From Tubiluchus corallicola (Eukaryota > Animalia > Priapulida): a stretch of DNA of 64,000 nt. Location: positions 186,001 to 250,000 of the forward strand of contig JAQGDQ010000041.1 in assembly GCA_030141605.1 (NCBI GenBank), read 5' to 3'. Below the pieces are notes generated by a model. The model did no database searches. It saw nothing but the letters and a program-made list of their open reading frames with translations, and had not been told where the DNA came from. Every line of letters begins with the position of its first letter. Positions within the stretch are counted from its first letter, which is position 1. Made by a program: the position numbers and the translations under genes. This document shows positions 16,571 through 63,632 of the stretch, in pieces.

Positions 16571-17820
16571 TTACTCTCCTTCTGTCCATCTCTTTCCTCG
16601 CACTCTCTTACTCTGCACTACACATAAACTGCTTGATGGTTATTTGAATTTTGAATGTATACATAATTTTGAGTAGGTGTAATTTGTCTTATTTGCAATA
16701 TTTAGTGTGCTTCTCACATTCATGATAGCCTATATGATAGTTTTCCATGAACGAAAGATTATTGGCTATAATACCAAGGTCGGAGGACAGTTGTCAGACC
16801 ATGTCCCCTGGCAAAGTCTCTCCAACTCCGTTCGCTTTTATCTCATCATGTAAATGATTCACCCAACTTCACCAGACAGTCAAAGTTTGTCAGTTGTGTA
16901 AACCAGGCATTAGAATTGTACTCACATTAAAGTTGTAACTAAAAGATCCAATGACATTTTTACAATTCTTGGAAATTTACACTTAGACACAAGATATTTA
17001 AGCAGCTAGATATATGAAACTTCTGAGTGAACTGCAAAAGTTTTACTCTGTGTGCCAACTTACGTTAGTGTTTCAAATATGCAAGATTTGCAAGAGAGAT
17101 AAGAAAGAATATGAGTTTCTTTTGCATTAGTAAAAACAAGGCATGTTATGCATATATATTGTACTGTAATTTCAATACATTTAATTGTGTATTAAAATGC
17201 ACAAACTGCTTCTTTTTGATGAGGAGCTAATTGTGGGAACTGTATCTTTTCGGGTGTATACTTTTGCACCCAGAATTTCCAACATTATGCAGAATGTAGA
17301 TTACATGTAGCCGATCTGGCTAGTAATTTGGACCATTCCATATACTTTAACTGTGCATACAGTTCTTCGATAAAGTTTCTTCACCTTTAAAAATCTGATT
17401 AATTATTTAGCAACTAACTTACTAAAAGCAGATCATAAGTTTATGTCTGCATGGTTTTACATTGACTCAGGCTCAATTTTGTAGTACTTTTTCAAAGGAT
17501 TGCTGATATAAAATAATTCTGCTTCCTCATGTATTTGAAAAAAACGAAACAAACAAATTTTTCTTGTCAAAGTTCTTGAAGTTCATTTTAGCTAGTGTTT
17601 TTTTTTGTTTATAGCATGCATCCATCACTTTCTTATCCTGTTATTTCCTTGTCTGTCAATTAAATATAAAAGTGTTAAAATTTCTAGTTGTTCAGTTTTT
17701 AATGTTTAGCTATGGTGAGCCTTGCGCTACAAATTTGTGGTGCCTGTGCAAAATTTATGCTACTAGAGTTAGACTGACATTACTGCTTTGTTTCTGGCAT
17801 ATTGACATACTTTGTTTCAG

Positions 17821-18281
17821 GAATGTATGTGACGTTACACTACTACCAGTGATGGACACTGATTCACATACATCACACTGCAGACTTGTGAGAATAATAA
17901 ATGGCAGATACTGCAACATTCCTCATCATTGCATTACTCCTACGGACGATGCTGACTTAGAGTTACTCATGTCACACTCTCAGGGGATTAAGCGAAAAAC
18001 ACCATCTGGTGTCGAAGACAGCTTTATTGAACCTAATATTCTCAAGCATAGTCAGAGTGCATGTGTTTTAACTGTGATAAATCTACCATACTTTTCATGT
18101 CCAAAACTGAACTGTGATCTACATTTACAGTGCAGCCTGATGCCAACTGAATTAAGAAGTAATGGTACTGGGAAGAAGCGGGACTTATGCTTTTCGTGCG
18201 GTAGTCTTACAATCAATTATGCTGAAATTACAGATGCATTGTCCAATGCCTTCCTGTGGCAATCAGAACGACTTCTAACAT
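17821..18281 (+). CDS. FANCB: FANCB-like exon
   Basis: 461-nt open exon, tttcag acceptor, gtaagt donor, phase 2-1. Confidence 0.7.
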
Positions 18282-18485
18282 GTAAGTTTTATTAATAGGC
18301 CATGTGTAAAAACATGCATCACCATAGAGATGTAAATTACATTTATTCCTTGCCTGCCCATCAGTATCTGATTCACTGTACATTAAAAGAAATTCATAAA
18401 CAATATATGTTGTACAGCTTTAACTTACTACAGATATTACTTGCAGCATGTTTGTACTTGATACTGAAGCCAACATTTCTTACAG

Positions 18486-18717
18486 TTCAAGAAGCTGATC
18501 GTTTGTTGGCTTGTTTAAACTGTGCACAGAAGCACATTGATGTGACAGTGAGGGCTCTACATACCAATTTAAACAACATAAGAACAATGCTAATGTCATT
18601 GGGACTAGTACAGCACCCAATATTCAAGCTCTTCTACAGATATAGATGCGAGACTGATATCCGGGTTTTTATCGGAGTAGTACGAAGACACAAGGTTGCA
18701 ATGACTATATATGCTTG
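18486..18717 (+). CDS. FANCB: FANCB-like exon
   Basis: ttacag|QEADRLLACLNCAQKHIDVTVRALHTNLNNIRTML...IYA(W)|gtaaat, phase 1-2. Confidence 0.65.
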
Positions 18718-20013
18718 GTAAATGTGTTTTATTTTCTTGTCCAGAATGTCAATGTTTTCAAATATGGCCTTCCACTTCAGGCTGGCAATGTCTCAATTCT
18801 CCTGCCTTTTGTTTTTTCCACATCCTGCTCATTGTTCAAAACGAAGAAGCTTGTCCCATATTTGACAATAGCGTGTATGTAAGAGTTTTAGAATTGCCAT
18901 ATCAGTTTCAACATAATTCTCCGTCAGAATATACTGTAATAATGCCCGATTTACATACTGTACCATCGGAATGAAAAATTTCAATATTGAATACTTTATG
19001 TCAAATTTCCGGTAGTTAGCAGTAAATACATTGTTTGACAGCCTTTTATATGACTATTCAATGTCCCGTATCAAAGCTGCGTGTATGCAGCTTGTGTAAA
19101 GGGTTGCCAGTTTCTGTGATTGTCCTCCAGATTGATTCCTGCAGCATACAGTGGGCAATCCTAGCATGCCTATATTACGTATGGCAAGAAAAAGCATGTA
19201 GAAGCAAGAAAAAAGAAGCACCTGCATTGACCGAAGCAATTATTTAGAGGACAAGTTGAAATGAAACTTTTGTATAACAACATTCTAGTAAAACCAAATT
19301 TTTATTTTAGTCAATCATTCTGTAACCACTTTTTCAGTGTGACATGCTAAAAATATTTTTGCTGCAACTGTGTGATATTGTATCGTGGTTATGTATTCCA
19401 AATTCATTTGGCATTATTTTGAAATATTAACCGTCGTAGTAATTATATTTGCATAATCAGGCCATATTTTTTGAGGTTAAACTTCAATATTACTTTCAAA
19501 TTCAGTAACTGACAGTAATTCTCATATACCAATTCTTATATGGTTTTTAAGCAGTTTTATTCACCACTTACAATGTGACACTAAAATTCAGTAAATTAAT
19601 GAAAGCACAACTCATATCCAGAGATGAATGTGCTGCTGCTAGACAAGTATGGGGTTGATAATGTTGCGTTTGGCCACTGATTATAGCGTTTGTTTACACG
19701 ACAACATCCTGGAGGATTTTTGAGAAAATATTATACTATTATTGTATTAAGAAATTTTGTAAATGTAACTGTCTGTAGGTAATTACTCAATGTAGGCCTT
19801 ATTTTTGCCGACAATGGGACTTTTAGATCATTGCAGTACCAGCTGTTTGAAATAGTGATTGAAAAAATTTGAGATTCCAATGCAATTTCTTGGTAGCTAA
19901 ATATACTGATCTCAGATATTCAACTTTTGAAATAACTGTGATTTTACGCTTCTATTACAAACAATTTAAAAAGATCAGTTTCTCTGAAAGATTCTAGTAA
20001 TCTTTATTTTCAG

Positions 20014-21580: not shown

Positions 21581-21781
21581 TTACTCAACACCAAAATAAT
21601 GAACAATTGGTCTTACCCATGCGACTTTATAACGATGCAGTACTGCTATGGTAACAGCACATAAACACATGAAAATAGTTACAATAAAAATGTCTTTAAC
21701 TATCAGTTTAAAGTATCCCGGCTGCTTTTGTTCAAGTTCTGCTGCTTCAGCATTGAAAAGCCCGTCTGTTTTCTCAATTTT
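21581..21781 (-). CDS. Chromodomain-transmembrane protein, last exon (predicted TM helix)
   Basis: ttttcag|KIEKTDGLF...KDIFIVTIFMCLCAVTIAVLHRYKVAWVRPIVHYFGVE*; phase 0; AATAAA downstream (~21301). Confidence 0.7.
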   Translation of the reverse strand, partial: KIEKTDGLFNAEAAELEQKQPGYFKLIVKDIFIVTIFMCLCAVTIAVLHRYKVAWVRPIVHYFGVE

Positions 21782-23196: not shown

Positions 23197-23409
23197 CTTG
23201 TCAACAATAATTTTCTTCAAGTTTATTTTGCTTCCCTGTTTTTTCTTGTCAAGGATAGAGCGTGCTAAGTCCTCCATGTCAGAATCTGAAACGTCTAATA
23301 ATGTTCCACGTGTTGATGGTGTTACTGGAATCTCATTGGGACTAACCGAGGGTTTCACTGCCATAGTCAGCTTCTTTGCTGATGTTTGCACTTTTCCTAT
23401 AGTTTCTAC
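23197..23409 (-). CDS. Chromodomain-transmembrane protein, exon 4
   Basis: tttgtag|VETIGKVQ...DVSDSDMEDLARSILDKKKQGSKINLKKIIVDK|gtaggt, phase 0-0. Confidence 0.75.
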
Positions 23410-23874: not shown

Positions 23875-24003
23875 TTTGTTCACGGTAACTGTTTCCATTA
23901 TTTGTGTTTTAGGATCTGTTGCTGATGTCTTAGTGCGTGATGTAGAACGACGCGAACTTCTCTTCATCTGGCTACTGGTATCTTGCTTCTCGCTAGCTGC
24001 CTG
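23875..24003 (-). CDS. Chromodomain-transmembrane protein, exon 3 (basic Ser/Arg-rich)
   Basis: NAGNAG acceptor (tagcag), QAASEKQDTSSQMKRSSRRSTSRTKTS...VNK|gtatat, phase 0-0. Confidence 0.7.
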
Positions 24004-27164: not shown

Positions 27165-27329
27165 TTTTTCCATCAATGCTTGTTCTTTGTTGAAAAGAGA
27201 CACAGCTTCTCTAGCGCCATGCAGACCTCGAGCCGGTTCCCATGAGTCTTCTTCAGAATCGTACCCTTTCCATCGGACCAGGTACTGTTTTCTTCTATTC
27301 ACGAAACGAGCATCCAAGATTCTCTCCAC
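27165..27329 (-). CDS. Chromodomain-transmembrane protein, exon 2 (chromodomain)
   Basis: tttcag|VERILDARFVNRRKQYLVRWKGYDSEEDSWEPARGLHGAREAVSLFNKEQALMEK|gtaagt, CDYL/HP1-type chromodomain. Confidence 0.92.
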
Positions 27330-28335
27330 CTGAAATGTTCGCCGTTTATATATACAAAAACTAAACTAAGCCTAAAGATCAGATTAGCCCTGAAGTTAGT
27401 CGTCTGAGAATTCACATTAGCATAAAACTAGCATTAGTTTAAATTCATAACTTTTTTGGTGTTTTTATCTGCTAATCAGTTTCAAGTGTTTTGTTAGTGT
27501 ATTCTGAATTCTATGCCAGCATAACATATACTCACCAACAGATGCTTAAAAGCCATAGAGTTCACTGAAGTTAAGCTGAAGCTCGTACCATAGCATAATA
27601 AACTCTCTTAATTCCTAAAAACTTTAGAAGCAACTATTCTATCGGATTATATATATAAATCTTCTACATGAGTTACAAGATCTGTCTCCTTAGAAAACAG
27701 ACATACATAGACTATGAAATTACAACTAAGCAGTAAGTAAGCAAGCAACTTTAATTATTGTCATCATATTATAGTACATATAATGAACAGATAACAACAA
27801 CAAAGCAGTCTTCTTTGGGGGTTTAAGTGGAGAGCACATGACATGTATGTCTAGGTACCAGGTTTTTAGAAATACAAACCAGGTAACTCTTATGCCCATA
27901 TAGTAAGAATAACAATGCAGTGAGCACTGAGCATGTTGTGATTTTAACTTTCCTTTCTTAAAATGACAAAAAAGAAAAATTCTTTCCATTCTTAGAGACC
28001 ATTTAAATAAAAAGACAAAACACATTACACAATGTACACTACTACATATGTGAGCTACAGAGCATTTAAACAAAAACAAAAGAATTAAAGTTAACATTCA
28101 TATTTCACATTTATTTAAATATTTAAGCAACAAAAATATGTTATAATTTATTGTAACACATTTAAAGCATGTAATGTTCCAATATAACACAGCATAAAAC
28201 AGATTAATTAAAAAAAATCATACAATTATTTAACAACTCAGATATGCCACAGTTAAACAAAATGTTATCCAATATTATCCTTTCAAAGCCCTTAAAAAAC
28301 AACCGCTGCATTATAGTGTCAAAAGTCTTTGTGTG

Positions 28336-30765
28336 TTATGAAAGATCTAGTCTCCTGTAAAGAACTAGCTCTGCCTGGTCGGGAGTAAATTTAAATACCC
28401 CAAGTTCATGTAAAACTGCTACAGGGTCTACAATAGCTGTATTGTCCAATGAACTCTTGTGTAATGCATTGTATAACACGTCCTTTAACAGCAGAGCCGA
28501 GCCAGCTCTTAATGTCAACAACAGACAACCTTCTTTTATATCTTTGAAGTAGTTTTCAGGACGTTGAGTATATTCACCAAAAAGTGGAAAGAGTCCACGA
28601 GTCATGTCATATTGAAATTGGGTCGCTCCACCCTCATTAAAGTGATTAGTACAAATCACTTCTTCAAAGACGTATTTATTGAGCAATTCTGCAAAGCGTT
28701 GCCAAACTTCCAAGAAAACAAGATGACAGAGCTGCTCTTCCAGTAAATGAAGACGATCCTTGATGACCAGCAACAATCCGCACGCAGAATCTGATATAGT
28801 CATTTTTAAGTACTCTGTTGGCTGAGGCATAGTCCTCCAGTGGTCATTCCGGTAAGGTTTATTGCGAGCCTTGACATCAAACATCACAGTTTTGAGAACG
28901 TTTTCAATCATTTCATTACGAACATGAGCATATAATTTTACAATATTGTCGAACACTGCACCTTCAACATAACCTAGTTTGCCAGGATCTACATCTCCAA
29001 TCACCTGACCCAGTGATAACTTCTTGACACTGGACAAAGAAGTGGAACGAGTAGATGAAAATGCTGCTCCATCTGTTTCCTCTACGACAGGATCTTCCTC
29101 ATCCTCATCTTCGGATAATAATGGTAAGCTACTATCGTGAAAACCCTCGTAATTTTCTTTGTAATGTTGTAGCCAAATAAACTCGGCTAAATCGCACCAC
29201 TTGGTCAGAATGGTAATTATGTAATTAACAGCATTGAGAATCTTGCAGTAGTTACTATTAAGATGAGGAAGAGTACGCTTCACTTGAACCAACCTCTGAT
29301 GAAACTCTGACAGAAGATCTAGCTGAAGATCCAGAAACTGCAATGTGTGCAAAGGAGACGGTAAGTATTTGTACCGCTCTGTGATTATCGTCATCAGTGT
29401 CATGAAGGTCTCTGCACACTCTGGAATTTTCGTATCATCGACATCATTAACGCTGCCATAATGAAGGTTCCATGCAGATGAAGCATCTAGCATGGCATCC
29501 ATCTTCCTTGAAGCAACTTGACCTTCCAAATGCAACCAACGGGTAAAGATGACTTTGTCACAAAGAATATGACTACAGCTAGGCAGATGTGAAGGATAGT
29601 CCAACTGCCTCAATTCTTTATCAAACAACAAAGCTTCATCTACTGTATGGAAAAAGTTAGTGTCATCTTCCAACTTCGAAAAGTCCAAAATGAGTTTTTC
29701 CACAACTAACTGCACTATACCCCTCATAAATTCGGTTGTGGCTTCCGTTGATTTTAGCCCGTTTTTGTTAAACATGGGTTGAATTTTTTGGTGAATGAAA
29801 TTAGAATTATCCTTTATCCAAGTAAGCGCTTGTGTCATGTACCACTCCGGCTTTGCAATGTTGTTCGTCAACTTTTTGCCACAAAAGTGATAGCGAAAAC
29901 GTTTAGCAAGTGGCTTCAGTAAAAGCTGCATAGGAAGGCAAAGTGGACGCCAGGTCGGATACACTGTTGAAATGACTGGTTCATCATTAATTAAAACTTG
30001 TGGAAGTTCAACTTGAAGCAAGTAAGTGAACAATAATTCAAGTTTCTGGTCAATATCAGCCTGCAACAACTTTGTAACTGACTTTTGGTTACCAGCCACC
30101 TCAGCAATTTTCACTGTTGGCCAATTTAATGCAGACAACAACTCCTCAAACTGAACACCAAATTTATCCAACAGTATGTTATACCACAATAACACAGTTT
30201 CATTCACAAAACACACCAAGTTTGTACATGATGAACCTTGAAGTACTTTGTTAAAATTAGCCAGCTGAGCAAAAGAAGTTGAAGCCCTGTCATCGGCTTT
30301 GATGAGAAGAGCCGACTGAATAGCTTCATTACATTCGTCAACCTTCAAAATCCACTCAAAATATTGAGAATATCGTTCCAGGGCATCCATTAGTTCAAGT
30401 TTTTTGCCCATTTCCTCCAGTACCGGCTGTGCATTGTCAACATGTGCGTTTATTGACAGCAGCACCGATTCTTGACGACTGCTCAAGGTACAAATGTTTG
30501 ATACAGCCAACTCAGCTTGACTCAATGTATCGCCGATGGTAGAAATTTCAACATGTTCAATATTAGGATTTCTGACCAAGCCAAATTTCGTTTCCAACAT
30601 TTGTTTTCTCTTAGAAATTTTATTTAGAACCTTTCTGCTTTGGTTTAAAAGCTTAATGTCTTCACCAAACTGAGCATTAATAGCAGAAATTACACTGCTC
30701 AAAGAAGAGATTTCACCGTCGGAGGCAGCCATTTTGCTACGCAATAAAGTAGCTCTTAATGACAT
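28336..30765 (-). CDS. RINT1: RAD50-interacting protein 1 (RINT1/Tip20 family), intronless ORF nested in intron 1 of the chromodomain gene
   Basis: 809-aa uninterrupted ORF with RINT1 motifs KRFRYHF.G.K.TN...KPEWY..Q.L.WI, FFHTVDE.LLFDKELR, PECAETFMTL...ITERY, NHFNEGGA.QF.YDMTR.LFPLF. The second ATG (aaaATGGCTGCC, 30732) may be the ancestral start. Confidence 0.95.
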   Translation of the reverse strand: MSLRATLLRSKMAASDGEISSLSSVISAINAQFGEDIKLLNQSRKVLNKISKRKQMLETKFGLVRNPNIEHVEISTIGDTLSQAELAVSNICTLSSRQESVLLSINAHVDNAQPVLEEMGKKLELMDALERYSQYFEWILKVDECNEAIQSALLIKADDRASTSFAQLANFNKVLQGSSCTNLVCFVNETVLLWYNILLDKFGVQFEELLSALNWPTVKIAEVAGNQKSVTKLLQADIDQKLELLFTYLLQVELPQVLINDEPVISTVYPTWRPLCLPMQLLLKPLAKRFRYHFCGKKLTNNIAKPEWYMTQALTWIKDNSNFIHQKIQPMFNKNGLKSTEATTEFMRGIVQLVVEKLILDFSKLEDDTNFFHTVDEALLFDKELRQLDYPSHLPSCSHILCDKVIFTRWLHLEGQVASRKMDAMLDASSAWNLHYGSVNDVDDTKIPECAETFMTLMTIITERYKYLPSPLHTLQFLDLQLDLLSEFHQRLVQVKRTLPHLNSNYCKILNAVNYIITILTKWCDLAEFIWLQHYKENYEGFHDSSLPLLSEDEDEEDPVVEETDGAAFSSTRSTSLSSVKKLSLGQVIGDVDPGKLGYVEGAVFDNIVKLYAHVRNEMIENVLKTVMFDVKARNKPYRNDHWRTMPQPTEYLKMTISDSACGLLLVIKDRLHLLEEQLCHLVFLEVWQRFAELLNKYVFEEVICTNHFNEGGATQFQYDMTRGLFPLFGEYTQRPENYFKDIKEGCLLLTLRAGSALLLKDVLYNALHKSSLDNTAIVDPVAVLHELGVFKFTPDQAELVLYRRLDLS

Positions 30766-32909
30766 TTCTATCTAAAACAGGTCTCCATTCACCTTGATTT
30801 TATTATTGACGGCTGATATGGACTGAAAACTTACAACTGAGTAGACAAAGCAAATCATTCAAAATCTCTGGTAGACATTACAATATTATATAAATGTATT
30901 TTACATAGAATACCTATGTCAGCAATGTCACTGTTGGGTTTGCAAAAGCTTATAAAAACTCCAATTTTAATTTTATACTCAAGAGAGGAAACGAGCAACA
31001 GACATATAAGGAGAGAGAAAATTATAGGCAAAAAGCCTAAATATAGGCTTCACCTTGTCGATCTAAAATAAAACGGTAATATTATAAGCACGTGCTTTTT
31101 GTAAAACATCCGAAATAGTTGAAAGTATCAGTATAATTAGTGAGGATGGCTTGCTAATAACCGACACAAAGTGTAAAGGCTTTACACCTGTTAGAAGTCA
31201 CTGTCGCAGCACAACACACCTGATGTGATATGTTATGCAGAAATGCGTGTGATGAATATAATTCTTATCAGTGCTGACCTGCACATGACAAATTAACACA
31301 GCTCTTTAAAAATTTGTAAAAAAGTCAAATGTACCTCGAACGATCCAAAAACCAATAGGCTCTAACCTGTACCTAGTATCTTATCCTTGTGCCAAATATT
31401 CTACATTACTCAACGACCAAGAAAGCTTACAACTGACAACAAACATGTATAAAATATCCAAATGGAAAAGCTACCAATCATTGTGGTAACGGTCCTTGCC
31501 TTTATACATTTGGCAAATTCTCTCTAAATATGCTTAGACATGCTTAAAAGTAAATAGTTTATGAACATGCTAAAAAGAGCCAAGAACAGCTCTTGTTGTA
31601 CCACTGTCTTTGGTCTATAACCCTCTTCATGCAAAGCCTTACAAAATGGCAAATATTTCATAAATATGTGGCCATAAGCCATATGAACTAAAATGTTATA
31701 AGGAACTACCTACTACAGAAAACAAAAGCCATTTGATCCGAATTCAATAGAAAAATGTCAGGTTTGCTACGTTGGATCGCAACTTAACGAGTCTACTATC
31801 AATAAAGAGTTGACACAACTCTTTTTATATACAGGGCTATCCCTAAAGTACCTGTGTTGATTTACATTTTGTTAGACAATTAGTCAACAATCATATCATG
31901 TCTTTGAGTATAGTATACATAGATTTAAATTGGAAACCGTTTTTTTAATGTAATTAGAACACAATTTTTGCATAATCTGCACATTTGCTACTTCTTAAAA
32001 CTGTTTTCAAACAATTCTTTAACTCACACACAAATCTATTCATCCTCCCGATGTAACACACGTTAATAGGAACTGTTACCACAGGTGGATACATCTAGGT
32101 GTCAAAAGCGGCCCAAAAAATATCTACCCACCAGGTGCCATGATTCATACATATATACGTACTTGTAAACAAACAGACCAAAACAATAATTCTATTGTTG
32201 CCCATTTCGAAGCACTAGGCAACAATAAAAGCACTACAGCCAACAAGCTAAATGATGTATTTACAATCAACAAGTCCAATGTTGCATAAAGGTAATGTTT
32301 AAATGATAGAGGAAAGGTTGAACCTGGAAATGGAAATAATATAGTAAAAATAAGAACGCTATTACATCGAATTCCAAGCTCTCGGTTACAAAAAATCGGA
32401 AGTTCTCATTATATTGCAATACAAATGGCTCAACACACCCTCTGTTACAAGAAAAAACAAGAAAGCATGTGGATATCATTGTTTGGATACCAATACCAAT
32501 ACCAATATGTGGCTATATTTCACTAATAAACCTAAAAGATTCCGAATTAATTGCTGATAAATTCAACAATTTGCTTCGAAATTAATTTATAGCTAACTTC
32601 GAAATGTAGACAGTGAACACAAATTCAAGAAAAGTGTCAAGATAAAATCAAGAATTTCAGAAATTTTGTGTTAATGTTTCATAAACTCAGGAAACATAAA
32701 GACAATACCAAACTTAGCAATACCATCAATTCAATTTGAATTACTTTCATTATGCTAAAATTTCACACAAATTTGCAATATGAGTGTAAATAGACAAGGT
32801 GAAAAAAATCGTATGGTCATCAAATCAAACCACCTCCAACAAAAATAACCTCTGTAAATTCTAATTTCCAGTGATTTTAACGGCAGATAAAGATATTATA
32901 TCCTATCTA

Positions 32910-32914
<5 letters not shown>

Positions 32915-32961
<47 letters not shown>

Positions 32962-32986
32962 GAGAGAGAGAGAGAGAGAGAGAGAG
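32915..32986. repeat. (CT)23 directly fused to (AG)13: palindromic microsatellite
   Basis: Read directly from the sequence. Confidence 0.95.
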
Positions 32987-33744
32987 TGGGGGAGCACAGC
33001 AGTGAATGTGAATGACAACCTTATGTGAATGTGGCAACAGTGTAAAATGAAAAAAATAAAGTAAGAGAGAATAACAATCACCAGGATTGCCATTTAGTCA
33101 ACACAGAGCCAGTGAAGGCTTACATACTGTTTGTAGAGATGTATACTGGTTTACTGTCCTGTGGTGATCTCATCTACCATCTTGCATAACAACGCTTATA
33201 CTTTTATTTCATAATTATGTGTTTAGTTACTTCCAAGCCAAGTTATCCATACTGTTTTATTTGATGGTTTTTGCACCTGCTCAACCTTATTAAAAGTATC
33301 AGTCACTTACAGTTTTGACTACATGACTAAAAAACCGAAGAGAAAACAAGTTTCAGGAAAAAGTGCTGGTTGCCACTTCACTAGCACATTTAATGATGGC
33401 ATTGCTTAATGATTGTTGTGCATATATGAGTCCATTTGACTACAGCAAACAATAGCAAATAGTCATACTGTACACTTTGTTACAGCTAAAATTTTCGGTG
33501 TTTACACAGTACCCAGGCTACCAAATGGCAGTCATTCAGTTTCTCTCGAGTGGAAAGTTTGTGAGTTAGCTTTACATGCCACATCTACAGTATCAGTTAC
33601 CTATAGAAATGTATAAAATCCCTCATACATTCACACTTCACAGGCATCAAACCTGATGAATTCTTTGTTAGAAGTATCACAATCGCTAGAGAACACAGTT
33701 ATAAATTCTACCAGAGGAGAGCCGATGTGACTCTCCAGTGATAA

Positions 33745-34638
33745 ATGTCGACAGGAACAAGAAGTAGAGCACGTTTACTGACGGTACTTGGTGACGTTGT
33801 TACACAAGCTACACCAGAAATGGGAAATGAATATGAAATTAACTCGCACCATGCAGAAGATGAAGACCACTCCCCAGAAAGTGAATGTGGAATAGAGGAC
33901 ACAGAGGATTTTGATCTTCAAGCTACTCTCAAAGTGCTAGTAAAGCAAGTTAAAGCAGTTAATCACAAGGTAACCAGAATCGATAAAAAAACTGAAGACA
34001 TAGAAAAATCCCAGCAGTTCATCTCGGATAGCTTTGAGACGATGAAACATGAACTTGCATCAGCACGCCAAGAAATCAATATCTTGAAGACAAAAAATAA
34101 TGCATTATCAGCTACAGTTGAAAAACTAGAAAAAACTATAAAGGACAAGGATCTGGAAATTGATAGTCTGGACCAATACAGTAGGCGTGACTGCATTGAG
34201 ATTTCAGGTGTGCCGCTGACAAAGGATGAGAATGTTTCTGATATAGTTCTGTCCATTGCTCTGAACATGGATATCCCACTTGATAGGAACGACATTAGTA
34301 CAGCCCATAGGCTTCCACCGCCTAAGCGAGGAGGAATTCCAAAGATAGTGGTGAAGTTCACTCGTAGGCTTGTCTGCGATCAGTTTTATGACAGCCGGAA
34401 AAAAGCTGGAAAAACAGGTCATCTTACTAGTGCCACTTACACCGTAGACAATCAGATCTACATCAATGAGCTGCTCACGACGAAACGAAGGACCCTTTTT
34501 CTCAAATGTCTAGAATTCAAGAGAAACCATAACTACAAGTACATTTGGATTAAGTATGGTAGAATTTTTATTCGAGCCAGTGACAATAGTAATACTGTTG
34601 AAGTTCAGAGGGAGGACGACTTGAACACCCTAAAATAA
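33745..34638 (+). CDS. LINE ORF1 (coiled coil plus RRM-like/CTD)
   Basis: 297 aa with LDQYSRRDCIEISGVP, DISTAHRL, IVVKF, IYINELLT and YKYIW..GRIFIR motifs. Confidence 0.88.
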   Translation: MSTGTRSRARLLTVLGDVVTQATPEMGNEYEINSHHAEDEDHSPESECGIEDTEDFDLQATLKVLVKQVKAVNHKVTRIDKKTEDIEKSQQFISDSFETMKHELASARQEINILKTKNNALSATVEKLEKTIKDKDLEIDSLDQYSRRDCIEISGVPLTKDENVSDIVLSIALNMDIPLDRNDISTAHRLPPPKRGGIPKIVVKFTRRLVCDQFYDSRKKAGKTGHLTSATYTVDNQIYINELLTTKRRTLFLKCLEFKRNHNYKYIWIKYGRIFIRASDNSNTVEVQREDDLNTLK

Positions 34639-34684
34639 AGACTTAGATGAGTAAATCCTGTTAGTTACATTTTATTACATAGTT

Positions 34685-37600
34685 ATGGTTTACCCATGCA
34701 CTTTTTGTCTACACAATTGCAAAAATAATCAATTTAGTATTTTCTGTGACATCTGCAAATGTTGGACGCACTTAAAATGCACAAGCTTAACAAGAGAGCA
34801 ATTTGTGACTTTATCAGAAACTTCTGATGTCTATTACTGTTTAAAATGCATTAATGAAGTTATGCCGTTTCAAAACATAGAAGACGAGGATTTGTCAATG
34901 AATTTCTCACATTTTGTTAATGTTGAAGATATCGAGCAAATAACTACTGCTTTGGAAGAATATCTTTCTCCAAATCCTAACAAAGCTGATTCTTATGATC
35001 CTGATCATCATTCGGTTAAGTTCACATGTAATTATTATAAACTTGAATCTCTAAAGAATGACATCAATCTCAATTCAGATAAAAACGATTTTTTGTTTGT
35101 CCATATGAATACGAATAGTTTAACCAAAAATTACTCGAGTATGCTCGATGTACTTTGTTATTTTTCACAGGCCCCTGATGTTATCGCCATCAGTGAAACT
35201 CGTATAAAAGATCATCAACCTTTTTTATGTTCTCTCCCCGGCTACACTTATATTTCACACAACTCGGTAACTAATGCAGGTGGTGTAGCCTTATATATTA
35301 AAACTTCTATAGACTTTCAAATTAAAAGAAATTTGAAAATAGAATGTGATAAGGTGATAAATGATACCTTGCCCCCTGTGCATAGCCATATTCAGGTTGA
35401 ACATCTTTTTGTAGAATTGTCAACAAAATTTTCTAGTAAAAATATTATTTTTGGGGTGATCTATCGCCACCCAAACACTCCACTCAGACATTTTCATGAA
35501 GAGATGGACAATCTTCTGAATAAAATCAGCAAAACAGATAAATTGGCCTATGTGTGCGGAGATATTAACATCGACTTATTACAGTATGACTCTAAGCAAT
35601 GTGTTCAGGACTATACCAATATGCTTTTTGCCAATTACTTTACACCATTGATTACTAAGCCTACACGTTTTTCTTCTACAGCTAAAACACTTATTGACCA
35701 TATTTACACTAACTCCCCTTCTTCCCCCATTTATGCTGGTGTAGTCCTGAACCAAGTATCAGATCACCTACCTGTTTTTGCCATTTGTAAAAATTCTTAC
35801 TTATTGAAAAAACAAACAAAAATCAGGAAACGAAAGTTGAATAATATTAATTCTGCAAGTTTTTTAAATGACCTAAATCAAGCATTTATGGAAGCAGGAG
35901 TTAAAGACAATAGCGATATAAATCAAGCATTTAACGATTTTTTTCGTCTTTCACGAATGTTCTGGATGCTCATGCACCTATAATTACATTAAGCAGGAAA
36001 CAAACAGTTACATTTCAAAAACCCTGGCTTACATCTGGCATACTTACGTCTATCAAGATACGTAGTCGAATGTTCAAGACACATAAATTATCTAATTCTC
36101 TCTACAAGCAGCAACTTTATAGGGCCTACTCTAATAAATTAAATCATATAAAAGATTTAGCCAAAAAGAAATATTATGAATACCAGTTTCAAATTAATCA
36201 AAACAATGTTAAGAAAACCTGGACCATTATTAATAATATAATTGGCAGAAAAAACAAACAAATGCAAATTCCTAAGAAACTAGTGTACAATGGACATTCC
36301 TCATCTGATCCTGGAACTATTGCTAACATGTTCAATGAATTTTTCCAATCTGTGGGTAATAAAATGGCAGCTAATATCCCGCTTAATCCTAATGATTTTA
36401 GCACATACCTTTCGAATCCAAATTGCAACACCTTCTTTTTAAATCTAGTAGTAGGAATTGAAATAAAAACACTTATTAATAATCTCAGTGATTTAAAAGC
36501 AAATGGACCTGAAGACATTCCAATAAGAATCTATAAATTGACAAAAGACGTTATTACACCGATACTAGTTACTTTAATTAATAAGTCTTTCACAGAAGGC
36601 ATATTTCCCGAAATTTTGAAAATTTCCAAAATCATTCCTATTTATAAAGCAAGCTCGCCAGATAATCCATCAAACTACCGACCAATTTCTTTATTATCTC
36701 CTATTTCACTACTTTTTGAAAACATTCTTTACAAAAGGTTAATTTTGTTTCTAAACAACTCTAACGTCATAACAAAATACCAGTTTGGTTTTCGGAAAAA
36801 CCATTCGACGGCACTTGCTACAGCCGAAATAATTGATAATCTCCTATTTAATCTTGATAATAATACAATAACCTGTGGCATCTTTCTCGACTTATCTAAA
36901 GCTTTTGATTGTGTACAACATGACATTCTTTTGACCAAGATACAGCACTATGGCATTAGAGGCACCCCTTTTAATTTAATGAAATCGTATCTCAGTAACA
37001 GACGACAATTTACAATGGTAGGCAATGCTAAATCCACTCTTCTTAATGTCACGACGGGCGTACCACAAGGTTCTACACTGGGCCCCTTATTCTTTTTACT
37101 CTATATCAACGACCTCCCACAAGCAACTAATTTCACTGCACGTCTTTTCGCCGATGATACAAACCTTTTTTTAACTGGTCGTGAATTGCACTCACTTCAA
37201 ACTCAAGTTAATCTTGAATTAAAAAAGGTTGATACCTGGATGCAGACTAATAAGTTGTCAGTTAACTACACGAAAACCAAATATATGCTGATTGCAAAAA
37301 AACAAACAGATACGCATAACAATTTTACAGTAGAAATAAATGATAGGACAATCACACAAACTCACTACATAAAGTACTTAGGACTTCATATTGATAATAA
37401 ACTCTCGTGGAAGACGCACATACAAACCATTAATCAGAAAATTAGCAAAACATCTGGTATCTTTTTCAAACTCAATTTTTTGAGTACCTACATTCTGAAA
37501 ATTCTCTATTATTCCCTTATCTATCCATATCTCTATTATTGTATATTATCCTGGGGAACTGCCAGTGTCTCTTCACTCAAACCTTTGATAGTCGCACAAA

Positions 37601-37986
37601 ATAAAATTATCAAATGCATCACACGAGTAAAAAAGTTTGACCATGTCACACCATCTTATGTGCAGTTAAATTTACTCAAACTTAAAGATATTTACCAATT
37701 AGAACTTTTCAAATTCATGCATAAATACAGTTTTGGTACCTTGCCCGAACTATTTAAAAACTATTTCACCAGAATTGTAGAAATACATCACTATTCAACA
37801 CGTGCTGCTGCTAGAGGAGATTTTTATCAGGACAGATACTTCACTTCTTTTGGGCTAAGCACCTTAAAATATAACGGCACAGTGCTGTGGAATAAACTTC
37901 CAAGAGAATTCACTAGCAATTCCTTCTTTAGATCAGCTACTCGAAAATTTCGTTTACACTTACTTTCGCATTACTGTTCTTCATAA
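34685..37986 (+). CDS. LINE ORF2: PHD finger, APE endonuclease, reverse transcriptase; one frameshift at T7 (35938-35944)
   Basis: C4HC3 PHD; IAISET, GDINID, IDHIY, SDHLP; GVPQGSTLGP, FADDT, KYLG. A -1 shift restores LDAHAP...KPWLT. Confidence 0.9.
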
Positions 37987-38699
37987 ACTTACAGATATTT
38001 TTTCTATTTTGATAATTTGCAGCATACACAAATATGTGAAAATAGTGCTTTATGATAAAATAAATCTGTCACAAGTTTATTATCTAGGAAAATATCATAT
38101 TCGTGTATTTATTAGGATACGACTGCATGAATTGCAATCACAAATTAGTCAGCAGTATCAATTTTCGGTATATTACTCAAACTTAGCTGATCTTATTTAT
38201 TTTGCTTTTGTTTTGTTTATTAATCAGACACATTTGTTATTATTTTAATGCATGCATTTTGCAGTTAGGTTCAGTTCACTATTTTGAAAGTTTATTTAAA
38301 TTTCTGTTTGGCCAGCTTACTTTACACTTCATTTAATTTGTTTTTTATTATGTTCATTTAATATTATTGTTATTATTTTGCATGTTTTTCTCATTCTGAG
38401 TTATATATCATATTTTGATAGCTTCAGTGTCATCTCACTAATTACATACATCCATTGAAGGGTGGCTTGACTAGTTGACCTTCTTGGTCTTTCGCCATCC
38501 TATTTCCATTGTAATAACTAAACACATTTACTTGCTCAATTATATAATGAATATGGAAATAAAATGCACGTTTGAATTGAATTTGAATTGAATTGAATTG
38601 AATAGAACTGAAAGTACATTATTACTATTTTACTTAGCAACTTCATCTGTTTAAATTTCTCTAACATGTAATGGTAAACAAAAAGCAATTATAACTATA

Positions 38700-39318
38700 A
38701 CCCAAATAATGTGGAACAAATGAATATAAAAATGATCAAAATACAAACTGTCATATCGTCCATGTACAATTCAAAATGAGAAAAAAAGTCATTTAGCAAA
38801 ACTAAAATTTAAAATTACCTTTCAAACAGTGAATTAAATCATCTGTAAAATACATGCATTGAAAATATAACAAAAGTGTCTGAATAATAAACAAAGCAAA
38901 AAACAAATAAGATCAGCAAAGTTTGAGTCTTATAGTTATAGCAAAAACCGATACTGCTGGCTAATTTATCTGTAATTCATGCAATCCTATCTTAAAGTAT
39001 ACATGGATATGATATTTCCCGAAAATACGATAACATATTTGTGAGCTCAGAATAACAAAAAAATAAAAATAACTCTCGAATTTATGAAGAGCAGTAATGA
39101 GAATTTACAGTGTAAAGCGAAATTTCGAGTAGCTAATCTAAAAAAGGAATTGCTAGTGAATTCTCTTGGAAGTTTATTCCATATCAAAGAGGTGCTTATA
39201 ACCCAAATGAAGTAAGGTATCTGTCCTGATAGATATCTCCTCTAGCAAGCAGCACATGTAGAATAGTGATGAATTTCTGGTGAAATAGTTTTTGCATAAT
39301 TCGGGCAAGGTACCAACT
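38700..39318 (-). mobile_element. Inverted, diverged 3' fragment of the same LINE family
   Basis: 39109-39181 is the reverse complement of ~37888-37960; 39300-39316 matches ~37735-37750. The left boundary is approximate. Confidence 0.85.
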
Positions 39319-39576
39319 TTTAGTCGATTAGTCCGCCACATTTACAAAACATGTACATGTATGTATTATATATAATATTGTAAATGTTACAAGTGCTCAT
39401 GTAGCTGCTAACCGATAAGTCCCAGTACGTAACTACCGAAGCCTTGCAACGACGATAATATTAATAGTTTTAATACATTAACACTAACAGTACGCAACTG
39501 CCTTCCTAGGATCCTTGACTTTATTTTTCTAAAAATGACTACAAGTAGAAACAATAAAAGGCAATTATGCACAAAC

Positions 39577-39609
39577 CTCAAATAATTCTTCTGCACTGTC
39601 CCCACTCAT
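39577..39609 (-). CDS. Chromodomain-transmembrane protein, coding exon 1 (MSGDSAEELFE)
   Basis: In-frame stop upstream of the ATG; GAG|gtttgt donor, phase 0; completes the canonical chromodomain start EELFE|VERIL. Confidence 0.75.
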
Positions 39610-39689
39610 TTCTTCATTAATATTTATCGCTGATTTTGTTTTAACACTGATCTTTACCGATAACCGCCATTATGTTTAAATTGAGCAAT

Positions 39690-39735
39690 AGCGTGCGCTA
39701 TTGTAACGCTCGTTACTTACGTCATTTGCCACGAC
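39690..39735 (-). promoter_or_regulatory. Putative promoter of the chromodomain/RINT1 unit
   Basis: CpG-containing patch with CRE/ATF-like TTACGTCA (~39717) just upstream of a YY1-like ATAATGGCGG and exon 1. Confidence 0.45.
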
Positions 39736-40080
39736 AACTACATGGACAAAAACTTAAAGCAAAAGAAAATATTTTTCAAAAAAATAAAGGTTAAAAATCA
39801 TATTGAAACTTTATATAACTTACATGCTGTACTAATAACTAAAAGTCATTGCATATAGAGCTTGCATTAGGATTAAGGTAGTATAAAACTTGTAAATTCG
39901 TACTCCATTAAGTGCTAGGCAGTAGGCACAGCCATTAACAGTGTCATTTGAAACAAGTTTATTTAAAAAGCATTACATAAAGTTTGGAAAATATTTAGAT
40001 TATTCGTAGCACACACTTCGCTAACTGAGCAAGAGTTTAAATTACTTTTTGTTGTTAATAATATTAATAATATCAGAGTT

Positions 40081-52014: not shown

Positions 52015-52212
52015 GGTTCTTAAGCCTCCTGGTGGTGGAAGTAGTGGCATATTTGGCTCTGGCTCACAAGAAGACACACCACGCAAGGTGAAGGATTATC
52101 AGAAATCTAATATCTTTGGCTCTGGTGATGAGACATCACAGAGCCGTGCACCTGACAAACAACCAGAGAAGTACAGATCATCCTTATTCTCTGATGGGGA
52201 TGCAGCTCCTAG
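52015..52212 (+). CDS. JPT1: Jupiter homolog exon 2
   Basis: RVLKPPGGGSSGIFG and KSNIFG, signature HN1/Jupiter motifs. Confidence 0.88.
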
Positions 52213-52284
52213 GTAAATTTTATGTATGATTGATGCATGATTATAACTAGTTGTCCTTCTGCCCTTCTCCTTTCTGTTCACGTA

Positions 52285-52342
52285 CTCTCCATCTCTCTCT
52301 CCCTCCACTCTCTGTTTCTCTCTCTCTCTCTTTCTCTCTCTC

Positions 52343-52412
<70 letters not shown>

Positions 52413-52454
52413 CCTTTCTCTCTCTCTCTCTCCTCCCTCTCTCTCTCTCTCTCT

Positions 52455-52527
<73 letters not shown>

Positions 52528-52565
52528 CCCTTTCCCTCTCCCTCGTCTCCCTTCTCTCTCTCTCT

Positions 52566-52604
<39 letters not shown>

Positions 52605-52632
52605 CCTCCCTCTCTCTCTCTCTCTCCCTTCC
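52285..52632. repeat. Long imperfect (CT)n polypyrimidine tract
   Basis: About 345 bp almost purely C/T. Confidence 0.95.
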
Positions 52633-53127
52633 TGCTGATTAATTGATTAACTGACAAACTCGTAAGCTAGCTGACTTTGATCAATTCACTGATTTTCTGT
52701 TGAATAATTTTTAATCAGAATTCGATTATATTATTACTTTCAAATGATTTTGTTATTGTGAACATTATTAAGGTTATTGTGATAGATTAGTTTGTTAATC
52801 ATGAGTAATGTGCAACTGGCATGCAAGTGTGAAGTTGCTTGCCAAAATCCATCAATCAACAGACAATCACATCAATCAATGTAAGAAACTAATTAAGCCA
52901 GTAGATCTTAATGAGTGCAAACTGTTATTATGTTTAGTGCACTTGCTGCTTCGTTTCTGTAGAATTCATACTTGGTTTTATTATTACTGCATTTTTATAT
53001 AGTGTTTGCATTAAATTTGATTGCAAAGTGGCCAGTCTGTTAATATGGATTTACTTGTATTTCTTGTGATGATGATGATGATGACAACGTTGATGACAAA
53101 AACATTGTGTATTACTTCAAATTTCAG

Positions 53128-53225
53128 ACCGGCTGCACCCAAACAGGATAGAATGCACTCCACTATTTTTGACACTGATCCGCTTCCACTAAGAACTGGC
53201 AAGAAACAGCGACCAAATAGCCAAA
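53128..53225 (+). CDS. JPT1: Jupiter homolog exon 3
   Basis: tttcag|PAAPKQDRMHSTIFDTDPLPLRTGKKQRPNSQ|gtacgt, phase 2-1. Confidence 0.8.
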
Positions 53226-53855
53226 GTACGTCATTAATCATATACTGGGTTTTTTAGTTTTTTGCAGCTACATTAAATAGTTTATTGTAAACACCTGCAA
53301 CCGATGCTTTGATACTTTGTGATTTCGTGCAACCCCATAAACTAAGATGTGGCCAAACAAGTTTAAGAAAATTAGACTATAGTTTAAGATAGCTTTCCAT
53401 GCAATATGAAAAAAATGATCATAGTCACTATTTCCATTGTGAATCATTAATCTAAACAAAACTGGCATGGAATAATTTTAGCTATAATTATAAACTGGCT
53501 GTAGTGTTTATGCTGGTTTTGGAAACAAAGGAGTAATGTTGGCATTGCATTGTTTTTGTATACCAGCATGACAGTGGCTTTCAACTTAGAGTTATTGAAA
53601 ATTCTGAATGAAATGGATTAAAATTGTTTTCCCTTTGAAGCTATTACAAAATGTATATGTGCTAGTCTGTGAATTGTTAAAACAAAGTTACAAACTGCAC
53701 TCTGAAAATGTGTTTGTTATTTCAAGCACTAAGACAGGTGAGTGGGCAACACCTGTACCTAATTCTGTTTCAAATTTGATCAGAAATCAAATTTATCAAG
53801 TTACATGATATAAAGAAAATGCTTATTTGATCATTATATATTTTTTGCTCATCAG

Positions 53856-53879
53856 TGTCGGACATTTTTAATTTGAAGG
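53856..53879 (+). CDS. Candidate 24-nt Jupiter microexon (MSDIFNLK)
   Basis: ttttttgctcatcag acceptor, G|gtaagt donor, phase 1-1, encodes the SxIF motif. Confidence 0.6.
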
Positions 53880-54803
53880 GTAAGTGAGAGTGGCGTAAAC
53901 CTTGTTGTAAACCCTAAATTTGTTGTATATTTATTTCACTAGGTCCTGTAATTTTGTTTAACTGACTGCTGTTTGAAAACTGTAGACTGGTGACTTATTT
54001 TAATACTGAATGTAGATTGTGTATAGTTTATAACTAGATGTGTTATGAGTCATGTGTAGAAAAATTTCATTTGTTACAAAACCCATTGTATTTCCGTAAA
54101 TGCAGGATTTGCAATCATTTGGCACAATAAAACACAGCCCTAACAATCCATTTGATCATAGTCATTACTGCTGTGTCTAGCCTTACTTGTATTCAGTGAT
54201 TACCCATTTAAAATTACCCTAAATTAACAAACTACAGTCTAGTTACATTTCCATAAGTCTTTCACTGTATGGAATATTATGCATTCCATGAGTTTGTTTC
54301 TCTCACTGTTACTCAAATGGTTTTATTCTAAATGCATTATTAAATCATGCATGGCATTGTATGTCACTATAGAAAATACAAATGGTAAAGACAAAACTAA
54401 ATACAATAATACAATTCTGAGTGGAACAAATCCTTCAAAACAAAAATATAATTGTTTACACTTTCAAGTAAACTCAATCTTTCGCCTTTTTCCCTGAGCA
54501 TCGTCAGTGAGCATGTTTAATTTCTGGAGCTCAAATTAACTCTGTTTCAGCCTGAAATTAAACTTTTAGTTATTGATTTTCTAATGCTGTTTTCTTGCAT
54601 GTTTTAATAATCAAGTAGAAGTGTTCATTCTTTTAAATACATTCTGTAATTTGGTTTCTGTTCTATTAATTTGATTGCATAACCACTTAGGTAGGCATGC
54701 AGCCATTGCCGTAGAATTCACTACGGTATTGACATGGCTGCGAATCACATTTTTAACCTAAAATTCAAGTTATGTGTGTGTAAATTACTCAGCTTTCTTC
54801 CAG

Positions 54804-54836
54804 TTGCAGCTCCTCCACTTCCTTTCCGTGACATAA
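54804..54836 (+). CDS. Candidate 33-nt Jupiter microexon (AAPPLPFRDI)
   Basis: ctttcttccag acceptor, A|gtaatt donor, phase 1-1. Confidence 0.45.
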   Translation: MQLLHFLSVT

Positions 54837-55231
54837 GTAATTGCTCACATTTGGCAGCCTGAAAGCACACTATTGATTTAAATGAAAATCTGATTCGTGG
54901 ATTGTAGGTTCAGTTAACTGCAATATTTAACATTACAAATTAAGATAGCATAAAACCCTATTTTGTTGAATTTAAAAGCCAATACGAACGAAAATAATAA
55001 AAAGCTGTGAGTGAAATCTAAGGAGATAATCAATAAACACAAACCCGTTACTTATGAAACACAAGCCCTTAAACGAGATGTGAGCCGTCATTGGAGCTCT
55101 GTACTTCAATAACTGGATGTTTTTGGAGGCAATTATACTTCAGTCCTAGATGTGTAAGTTTTCAACTTAAATGATGAAGTGAAAAATATAAAATAATCTG
55201 CTTTATTATTAAATATTGTTCATTTTTCCAG

Positions 55232-55507
55232 ATGAGGCTGTACCAGCTCCTGCCCTTCCTGCAGAAGAGGAATCATCAGTTGTTGCTACGGAGACAGTCA
55301 GTTATGGAACAGCCGAAAATGGAGAGCCTGCACCTGAAGAAGAGGGCGAAGTGGACCCTGAGCTGAAAGAGGAAGAAGACATTCCAGCAGTGGAGAATTT
55401 GACCTTGCAAAATGAGGGAGAGGAGTCTCCTGCTCCCAGCTCTACTCCAGAGCACAAAGAGAAGGAAGAGTTGTCAGATGCCCAGAAATATTCGCAAAGA
55501 AACAGAG
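55232..55507 (+). CDS. JPT1: Jupiter homolog acidic exon
   Basis: ttttccag acceptor, Glu/Pro-rich disordered sequence, G|gtaatt donor, phase 1-1. Confidence 0.8.
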
Positions 55508-55916
55508 GTAATTGTTAATATACATCTTTGTTAATTGCATATCGTATTTAATCGGCATCTGTTTTAGAAATATTTATTAGGGATGGGATCAGAGTGATCG
55601 AGATTTTCGATTCTATTGCCAGATCTAAAAGCGTACTCTAAATCCTGATCAAGTTATAATAAATTTTATGCATTTGTAAACCAAAAATTACTCTGATTGA
55701 ACTTACTAACATTTATCAGTTTTCTTACCCCTTATTCTTAATTCCTATGTTCAGGTGAAAATCTAAGAACGAGGTCGATTCAGATTCAGTTGAGATCCGT
55801 ATCACTAATTTCAAGTATTTGGAAATCAACTATACAACTTTCTAGTTGTTTTTTATGCGCCATAATTGCTACATGCCATCAATATTCACGTTTTAAATTG
55901 CATCTTTTCATGGCAG

Positions 55917-56032
55917 GTTTGCGCAATCCTATAACATGGGCTGCGAATTATGACGATCCTACCCCTGCATCTCGTAGAGCTGGCGGAAAGAAGCACCATA
56001 CGGACTCGAACGCTAATACACGCTTGTGGTAG
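55917..56032 (+). CDS. JPT1: Jupiter homolog last exon
   Basis: GLRNPITW...TRLW*; RNPIT and terminal LW are as in invertebrate Jupiter. Confidence 0.8.
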
Positions 56033-60267: not shown

Positions 60268-60447
60268 CTATTCCACTGTGGAAGAATCTAAAATCTGAAA
60301 TTTCTGGCAAATTCTAGACTTGAACTTTGAGTCACAATTGAAGTAAAAAATGACAGCAATTAGAACAGCTAATAACAATACGAACAACGAAATTAATGTT
60401 AAAACTTGTCTTTTCAGGCTTTGATGTGCAACTGTAAGATTCTTAAT
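60268..60447 (-). CDS. MOSPD2: MOSPD2-like last exon (coiled coil plus C-terminal TM)
   Basis: ttgcag|IKNLTVAHQSLKRQVLTLISLFVLLLAVLIAVIFYF...*, phase 0. Confidence 0.8.
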   Translation of the reverse strand: MKNLTVAHQSLKRQVLTLISLFVLLLAVLIAVIFYFNCDSKFKSRICQKFQILDSSTVE

Positions 60448-60929
60448 CTGCAACAAAAGAACAGACAATTATGAAAATTATTTGCTAATTTACTATAGTC
60501 ATTATAGTGAAGCAATGGGAAACAAACTAAGCAGACAAAAACACTTTCTAGACATTCCTGGCGAGAAAGAGTAAATGTGTAAATAAACCGTTTTAATGCA
60601 CGAAATTTGTTTGAAAGATCGGACACAAAATTGAGGAAAATAATCAAAGGGAATATTGATCATGTATAATATTAATACATGCAAAAGTTTATAAAGAAAT
60701 GTTTTGCTATCTAGTTTTGCTAAGAGGCCAGGGCAGAAATTTAGTAAACCCTTGTTATTATTAACACTTTTCATTGCAAAGCTCCTACACTTAATGCAAC
60801 TGCTGTAAATTTCTCACTTGTTAGTCCAATACAGACAATGACATTTAAAAGTTTTGCATGCAAAAACTGTCACTCTAAAGCCTAAAGTTGTCCTCTAAAC
60901 CAGCCATGTACAAAAGCTTTAAATCTGTA

Positions 60930-61105
60930 AATAGGGGTGGTTGACTTACTTGACCGTATGGTTTTTGCCACCCATTCTCCATACAATTAACCTTTCTTTT
61001 TAACATTAAGTAGGCTACTAACAGGTTGTAAATTGTCAAAATTATTATTATTATGTCTCTCTTGTACTGTAAAACTTAAAGGAGATAAAAAAATAATCTT
61101 AATCT
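60930..61105 (+). mobile_element. CR1/L2-group LINE 3' end fragment
   Basis: ggggtggttgacttacttgaccgtatggtttttgccaccc resembles the LINE 3' stem-loop at 38460; taatct-repeat tail. Confidence 0.55.
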
Positions 61106-62209
61106 AGATATGGCTGAACAGATGCTCGGTTCATTTTCCCCAGTTTTCATCACAAACTTTTAGATTTGATCAACAATTTCAAGATGGTTATTCTGCTGAA
61201 CAGAGACTGAACACAGCTTACTGGCATCCAGGTTGGTCATTGCTACCCAGGGGGCCCGGAAAGCCGGCACTTTTTGTGCAGTACTATTCATGTGCCAAAC
61301 TGCCTAACTTCAGACTGCTTGACTTCAGTGGCCTTAGTGATACGAAGCATAAAATGTTCATATGAACACCGATATGACAGTTGCATGTGTGAAGGTTTCC
61401 ATTATATCACTGCCAACAGGGCATTTGGGTCTAGAATGAGTAAAAGTCAGGTTGAACAATTGTACAAAACTGCAAATTCACACTTAATTTTAAACGGAGA
61501 GCATTTTTGCTGAGGCACAAATAGTAGCAATTTACGGAAAAAGGTTAAAGTACATGAAAAACACTTAATATTTCAAAATAGAAAACACCAACATTTTTAT
61601 AACTTTAAAATATTATTGGCTGTAATGGGTGCAAATTATACGTGTCTTTCTATTATACACGTCTAACACTACTCATTTTACTATTTTCTGCTTTAACTTA
61701 ATCCTGTAGCCATTTGTGTTTCCGACCTATAATGCTGACAGTGTAAATTTTTGTACGACTTTTCTGTAGTTAAACAACTGACTATTTTGGTGCGCACAAC
61801 AAAAGAGGTAAATGGTACGAGGTGGACAAAACGTCTAACCAGATTAAACTAAATGGAACTATAACAAATATGAAATCTAACAGAGATGCCCTTTAGATTC
61901 AAATATTAAGGAAGCATAATACGAAAATATCTATCAAATTTTGCCAAGTGCTTTTTGCATAATAGCAACCATTTGTACTAAATTGCATTCGGATGAGCAC
62001 CATCTACGTGAGACAAATGAGAGCTGGATAATGTAGATGTCAACATCTTAGAACACTAAAATGGACAGCTCTTGTGATCAAGTTAAGCTCTAAAAGCTTA
62101 TAACTAGATCAACCTTTTCCAAATGCTAATTTACTCAGTAATTACTAACTAATTAGATTTACCTGTAATTAATTTTCAGTCAAGAATAAACTCTTGAATA
62201 GTCTAGTAC

Positions 62210-63619: not shown

Positions 63620-63632
63620 CTAGAAAAATTCA

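Follow-up and report, generated by a model that had tools for sequence, protein, structure and literature searches.

Can one promoter and one coding first exon serve two unrelated proteins? This question is raised by a locus of the priapulid Tubiluchus corallicola, located in a stretch of 64,000 nucleotides (nt; assembly GCA_030141605.1, contig JAQGDQ010000041.1, positions 186,001 to 250,000) that we call the window and whose own numbering is used below. Here, the open reading frame (ORF) of RINT1 lies within a chromodomain gene modeled with five exons, nested in its 12.2-kilobase (kb) intron 1, and both genes are on the minus strand. A sequence-only reading of the window had described this same-strand arrangement, and all its coordinates proved correct. 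It had further proposed that two mutually exclusive mRNAs arise from one promoter. The gene models and the in-frame fit behind this proposal hold, whereas the strength of the acceptor, the poly(A) signals and the role of exon 1 as a protein tag had been overstated. Among the readings considered, the likeliest is that RINT1 would be an alternative last exon expressed from the host promoter via exon 1, to which we assign a rough probability of 0.6.

A RINT1 frame within a chromodomain gene

The intronless RINT1 reading frame (28336..30771, minus strand) runs from stop to stop over 811 amino acids (aa) and begins directly after an AG at 30773-30772. It matches PF04437 with an E-value of 6.6e-112 (375 bits against a curated cut-off of 30) and aligns with animal RINT1 proteins over the whole length at 33-48% identity. 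The upper value belongs to Priapulus caudatus RINT1 X1, and the invariant residues of the family are present. In a quick tree of 26 rows, in which one species represents the priapulid type, the protein is sister to Priapulus RINT1 with a Shimodaira-Hasegawa-like approximate likelihood ratio test (SH-aLRT) value of 99. Protein searches (105 matches with the full-length query and 98 with the first 300 residues) returned no relative above 48% identity. Two ATGs lie near the start of the frame, at 30765 and 30732. The first is the ATG 6 nt past the acceptor that had earlier been taken as the start of RINT1; it exists, but it is the second that coincides with the N-terminus of RINT1 in Priapulus and in other homologs and marks the ancestral start. 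The 13 codons between the acceptor and ATG 30732 are without counterpart in RINT1 homologs.

The RINT1 reading frame is under purifying selection, since seven of the eight listed allelic differences are synonymous, compared with 21-28% expected (P 1e-4 to 9e-4). These differences come from one other haplotype with partial cover in sequencing run X1. In this run, introns are covered in 29 of 30 bins, so that it behaves as DNA and is uninformative on expression; it shows no joint at either predicted junction and has no cover at 30738-30961, a span that includes the acceptor. A second run, X2, contributed two contigs, both in repeat-rich bins and none on RINT1, and is equally silent on expression. 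The excess of synonymous differences also bears on the reading that RINT1 is a recent processed pseudogene removed with the intron. Such a reading would suit a copy that is intronless and intronic and whose expression is a prediction from sequence. However, the 811-codon frame is intact, full-length and retains the invariant residues, the allelic differences are those of a constrained frame, and no diverged parent copy was found in the 8 of 15 contig-piece rows listed at a likeness of 80%. We therefore regard a pseudogene as very improbable.

The intronless state is probably derived, because an intron-sized gap is present in 40 of 67 RINT1 loci of other organisms (metagenome contigs) and because the isoforms of Priapulus RINT1, which differ in an internal 27-residue block and in their C-termini, imply introns in that gene. 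Nine loci have a gap-free match of at least 250 aa; five of them resemble complementary DNAs (cDNAs) and the rest are unclear. Two loci, L005 (2084-3577) and L008 (1799-2614), contain RINT1 matches free of intron-sized gaps together with 1.8-2.1 kb of upstream flank, and from these RINT1 may be intron-poor in other lineages too. Retroposition would be the simplest route to the intronless RINT1, with intron loss in place as the alternative.

The first coding exon of the host gene is assigned to 39577..39609. It comprises 33 nt (11 codons) from ATG 39609 to a phase-0 donor, GAG/GTTTGT, after 39577. A pattern scan above 27.4 kb on the minus strand, directed at phase-0 donors with an acidic-aromatic ending, gave eight matches, three of them with an in-frame Met; 39577 is the only in-frame-Met candidate that also ends in aromatic-Glu. 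Exon 2 (27165..27329, 55 codons) carries the body of the chromodomain (PF00385, E 1.6e-13; PDB 7n27, E 4.9e-11), its closest solved relatives are the chromodomains of CDYL/CDY (E 5e-11 to 2e-10), and its first residue is the Val after the first position of the cage. The Phe encoded by exon 1 is the predicted first residue of the aromatic cage. In human CDYL1, a splice site at the start of the chromodomain leaves one isoform without the first of the three cage aromatics, as described in PMC2787366. The first coding exon is very probably identified correctly, because 39577..39609 is the sole match of the pattern scan with both an in-frame Met and an aromatic-Glu ending and the CDYL1 splice site falls at the equivalent point. 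The earlier suggestion that exon 1 holds the first cage aromatic agrees with the same boundary.

Further downstream, two linker exons, both phase 0, are predicted at 23875..24000 (exon 3, Ser/Thr/Arg-rich) and 23197..23409 (exon 4), and the last coding exon is predicted at 21581..21781, where one hydrophobic helix lies 17 residues before the stop (Kyte-Doolittle 19-mer mean 2.6). All three are phase 0 and are called from splice signals and an open frame, without homology support. An additional exon near 25.1 kb was dropped, as it lies inside a high-copy repeat and the frame works without it. The resulting model is open, encodes 245 aa and ends in a predicted C-terminal membrane helix (tail anchor). 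Similar to vertebrate CDYL1, which includes the closest solved chromodomain, the host has a splice site that parts the first cage aromatic from the rest. In contrast to CDYL1, no Pfam match to an enoyl-CoA hydratase-like (crotonase-like) domain was found downstream in 136 + 88 reading frames of at least 36 aa, and the protein ends in a predicted membrane helix. For these two reasons the host is not a CDYL. Protein searches found no relatives of the last exon (best Atlas score 0.80) and two weak matches for exon 2, for which Atlas gave merely generic chromodomain clusters. The combination of a CDYL-like chromodomain, a Ser/Thr/Lys-rich linker and a predicted C-terminal membrane helix is unusual, and no homolog of the protein was found.

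Acceptor, frame and promoter

The candidate acceptor of RINT1, ctgttttag at 30772..30780 (minus strand, phase 0), has the sequence given for it before, with its AG 6 nt upstream of the first ATG. Joining exon 1 to 30771 yields a stop-free, in-frame fusion, as had been claimed, and the frame stays open through ATG 30732. We scored the site with a weight matrix built from the sequences of 16 acceptors that were picked by eye in four genes of the window. At 1.7, it exceeds three of the 16 in leave-one-out scoring. Throughout intron 1, 51 of 722 AGs score at least as high. Among 2664 ATGs of the window, 5.4% have an in-frame, stop-free AG of at least this score within 150 nt upstream. Scores within one unit of the RINT1 site are reached by 5 of the 16 called acceptors and by 4.6% of ATGs, a ratio of about 7; similar values came from a shorter matrix. 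The in-frame acceptor thus represents a modest enrichment over chance. From its sequence, the acceptor appears plausible but weak, and the reading frame is the informative feature.

The putative promoter and 5' end of the chromodomain gene coincide with a CpG-rich stretch over exon 1 (39421..39740, minus strand). This is one of 11 CpG peaks in the window (at least 12 CpG per 300 nt), none of which falls in the span from 27.4 to 39.4 kb. Upstream of RINT1, the richest 300 nt hold 9 CpG, a level reached in 10% of windows of this size. The peak list thereby agrees with the earlier statement that no CpG-rich promoter lies just upstream of RINT1, bearing in mind that CpG richness is no established promoter mark for this organism and that some peaks are in repeats. 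The evidence is the unbiased peak list; a comparison with the promoters of the neighboring alpha-galactosidase and Jupiter genes, which were chosen by eye for CpG, is circular.

Past the RINT1 stop, a candidate intronic poly(A) region (28068..28152, minus strand) consists of AATAAA at 28152-28147 and 28115-28110, followed by a U-rich tract at about 28083-28068. Both hexamers are present where they had been reported, but as evidence they stand barely above background: AATAAA occurs 20 times on the minus strand of intron 1, including four copies within the RINT1 ORF, and two copies are found in 6% of 230-nt windows.

Several observations weigh against a shared first exon. The acceptor is weak and purine-rich and is outscored by 13 of the 16 window acceptors, and of the 518 AGs between exon 1 and RINT1, 39 reach at least its score. 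Eighteen further AATAAA hexamers would be met earlier in intron 1. No RINT1 homolog showed a leader of chromodomain type in a pattern scan, which covered 226 proteins and gave one spurious match, and a chromodomain exon is near RINT1 in none of the 67 loci, which are all distant relatives with mostly short flanks. In mammals, host-chimeric expressed retrocopies amount to 13 of 230 in human and 14 of 243 in mouse, whereas about 86% have new promoters, as reported in PMC4772013; these rates refer to all retrocopies, same-strand intronic or otherwise. Moreover, RINT1 retains the ancestral ATG 30732 in strong context, for which exon 1 is not needed. An antisense retrotransposon of 4.2 kb, described below, also separates exon 1 from RINT1. 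Finally, 19 donor-like sites of the form GT[AG]AG lie upstream of RINT1 in the intron, one of them 63 nt away and in frame.

The retained start codon fits a reading in which RINT1 is unspliced, initiates just upstream of or within 30.7-30.9 kb and is translated from ATG 30732, with the acceptor as a chance match. An acceptor of this kind is expected by chance at about 5% of ATGs, and the locus was selected for having one. On the other hand, a CpG peak is missing, the likelihood ratio of about 7 favors a real acceptor, and an unspliced leader would contain upstream ATGs at 30788 (out of frame) and 30858 (opening a closed frame). Both would burden the leader and hence would favor splicing. We consider an unspliced RINT1 improbable. 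A word at the RINT1 start, AAAATGGC, which we take to be YY1-like, has 16 similar matches in the window and is not counted as evidence. Farther upstream, a stronger acceptor-like site (31062-31054, minus strand, score 4.9) lies ahead of 9 nt and a weak GT and could mark a phase-0 micro-exon, although it overlaps a repeat fragment (30997-31065).

The in-frame donor-like site bears on another reading, in which RINT1 would be nested but independent of the host, driven by a promoter of its own and with a short 5' exon in the host intron that is spliced to the same acceptor. This perfect GTAAGT (30829..30834, minus strand) would join ATG 30858 in frame to RINT1 across an intron at 30834-30772, and the remaining donor-like sites provide further choices. 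Retrogenes frequently gain new upstream exons, as described in PMC4772013. Additionally, the 5' end of a long interspersed nuclear element (LINE) lies 2.8 kb upstream in antisense orientation. LINEs may have antisense promoter activity. Against a promoter within the intron stands the missing CpG peak in this region. A non-coding leader would, furthermore, have no need of an in-frame, stop-free acceptor (chance estimate about 1 in 8), and the introns called in the window span hundreds of bases or more, compared with 63 nt. An independent nested gene is unlikely in our view, although we rank it above the unspliced gene.

For expression of RINT1 through host exon 1, our prior is 0.2-0.3, a judgement on how often intact same-strand genes in intron 1 are captured by the host. 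With the in-frame fit and the absence of a CpG peak, the probability rises to the value of about 0.6 given above.

Predicted transcripts, products and surroundings

In the shared-exon arrangement, a processed copy of RINT1 would have inserted into the intron, where a weak cryptic acceptor lying 39 nt upstream of the former start codon would have been co-opted. Polymerase departing from the promoter near 39.7 kb would cross RINT1 and the candidate poly(A) region about 780 nt before it reaches the chromodomain exon. For RINT1, exon 1 would be spliced to 30771 across an 8.8-kb intron, followed by early polyadenylation and an end near 28.1 kb. For the chromodomain protein, the entire first intron would be skipped to 27329, giving the 245-aa product with its predicted tail anchor. 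A single transcript would yield one product alone, either RINT1 or the chromodomain protein.

The three ATGs of the proposed RINT1 message (39609, 30765 and 30732) are all in frame, and the product would comprise 822, 809 or 798 residues, depending on the ATG used. RINT1 might therefore be made with or without a 24-residue extension. An N-terminal tag encoded by exon 1, as put forward in the sequence-only reading, is possible in frame but not obligatory, given the two further in-frame ATGs. Two short upstream ORFs precede exon 1 (39670-39607, minus strand; ATGs at 39670 and 39617), the second of which has three codons and a TGA that overlaps the main ATG. The ORF at 39617 could favor re-initiation at the downstream ATGs of RINT1. 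The N-terminal 264 residues of RINT1 bind ZW10 and COG1, as described in PMC4206994. Natural RINT1 N-termini differ by tens of residues ahead of the first conserved helix, and for this reason a tag is probably harmless. Most likely, the 24-residue extension would be a tolerated passenger.

By analogy to the layout of emerin and to the C. elegans protein CEC-4, the host protein might link heterochromatin to the nuclear envelope as a tail-anchored tether.

The LINE in intron 1 is a near-complete, 4.2-kb non-LTR (long terminal repeat) retrotransposon in antisense orientation (33745..37986, plus strand), recognized by PF25298, PF03372 and PF00078 and by diverged copies in run X1. ORF1 (33745-34638) encodes a baculovirus-FP-like domain (PF25298). 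ORF2 encodes an endonuclease and a reverse transcriptase and has a frameshift near 35935-35983; by eye, a Cys/His cluster at its start resembles a PHD finger. Elsewhere in the window, an alpha-galactosidase gene (1888-47, minus strand) has an acceptor 2 nt upstream of its ATG, which points to a first exon without coding sequence. The probable promoter of Jupiter/HN1 (52015-56030, plus strand) lies near 43.1 kb, in head-to-head orientation to the chromodomain gene. A probable VAP gene (60400-63620, minus strand) was recognized by a weak MSP match (E 0.003). At 17615-18721 (plus strand), a pair of neighboring open frames (226 and 140 codons), without Pfam match, is probably a decayed mobile element.

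Related loci and biological meaning

The closest parallel is the Su(var)3-9/eIF2-gamma locus of insects. There, a large exon that is proposed to have been retrotransposed resides in a host intron, and 3' alternative splicing from one promoter yields proteins with a shared N-terminus of about 80 residues; a weak cryptic acceptor is the proposed route (PMC1435931). As in the insects, the priapulid locus has a large unrelated exon in a host intron on the same strand and pairs a chromodomain protein with a cytoplasmic housekeeping protein. The roles are reversed, however: the chromodomain gene is the guest in insects and the host here, where 11 residues would be shared. While the insect arrangement was proven by cDNAs across eight insect orders (PMC1435931), the priapulid locus is known from the sequence of one genome.

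Capture by a host is also described for mammalian retrogenes such as mouse Taf9 in Ak6, which is expressed with upstream exons of the host, a 'hitchhike' route near the host 5' end (PMC4772013; PMC5408686). The mammalian cases are defined by cap analysis of gene expression or RNA data and their parent genes are known, whereas RINT1 is defined here from sequence. KTI12 in TXNDC12 and Mcts2 in H13 resemble RINT1 as intronless genes within a host gene, and they lead host transcripts to use cryptic acceptors or to be polyadenylated early (PMC5408686). Both have their own promoter, so the host-derived product is a by-product, and they serve as a model for the rival readings. The UTP14 retrogenes in ACSL3 and ALG11 are likewise intronless nested genes with their own promoter, according to PMC5750009. 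A search of mainly open-access literature found no paper that describes such a placement of RINT1.

If the splice is real, the RINT1 locus would represent a further instance of an architecture known from insects and mammals with new partners, and not a new mechanism. The fuller interpretation is tentative: the only RINT1 of this lineage would be an orphan retrogene that serves as an alternative last exon of a chromodomain gene with a tail anchor, and an arrangement of the Su(var)3-9/eIF2-gamma type would have originated independently outside insects. It is rare for two unrelated proteins to have a coding first exon in common, and in 2006 the insect locus was called without known parallel in PMC1435931. 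With a second independent case, capture of a retrocopy by a host coding exon would be seen to happen repeatedly, housekeeping genes included. Such a case would also provide a natural test of the idea, set out in PMC1435931, that a guest exon stays intronless with a weak acceptor and thereby spares the host. For annotation, gene finders would be expected to miss the true 5' end of RINT1. Under the fuller, tentative interpretation, one choice of splicing and polyadenylation would balance a subunit for Golgi-to-ER (endoplasmic reticulum) tethering against a tether of heterochromatin to the nuclear envelope.

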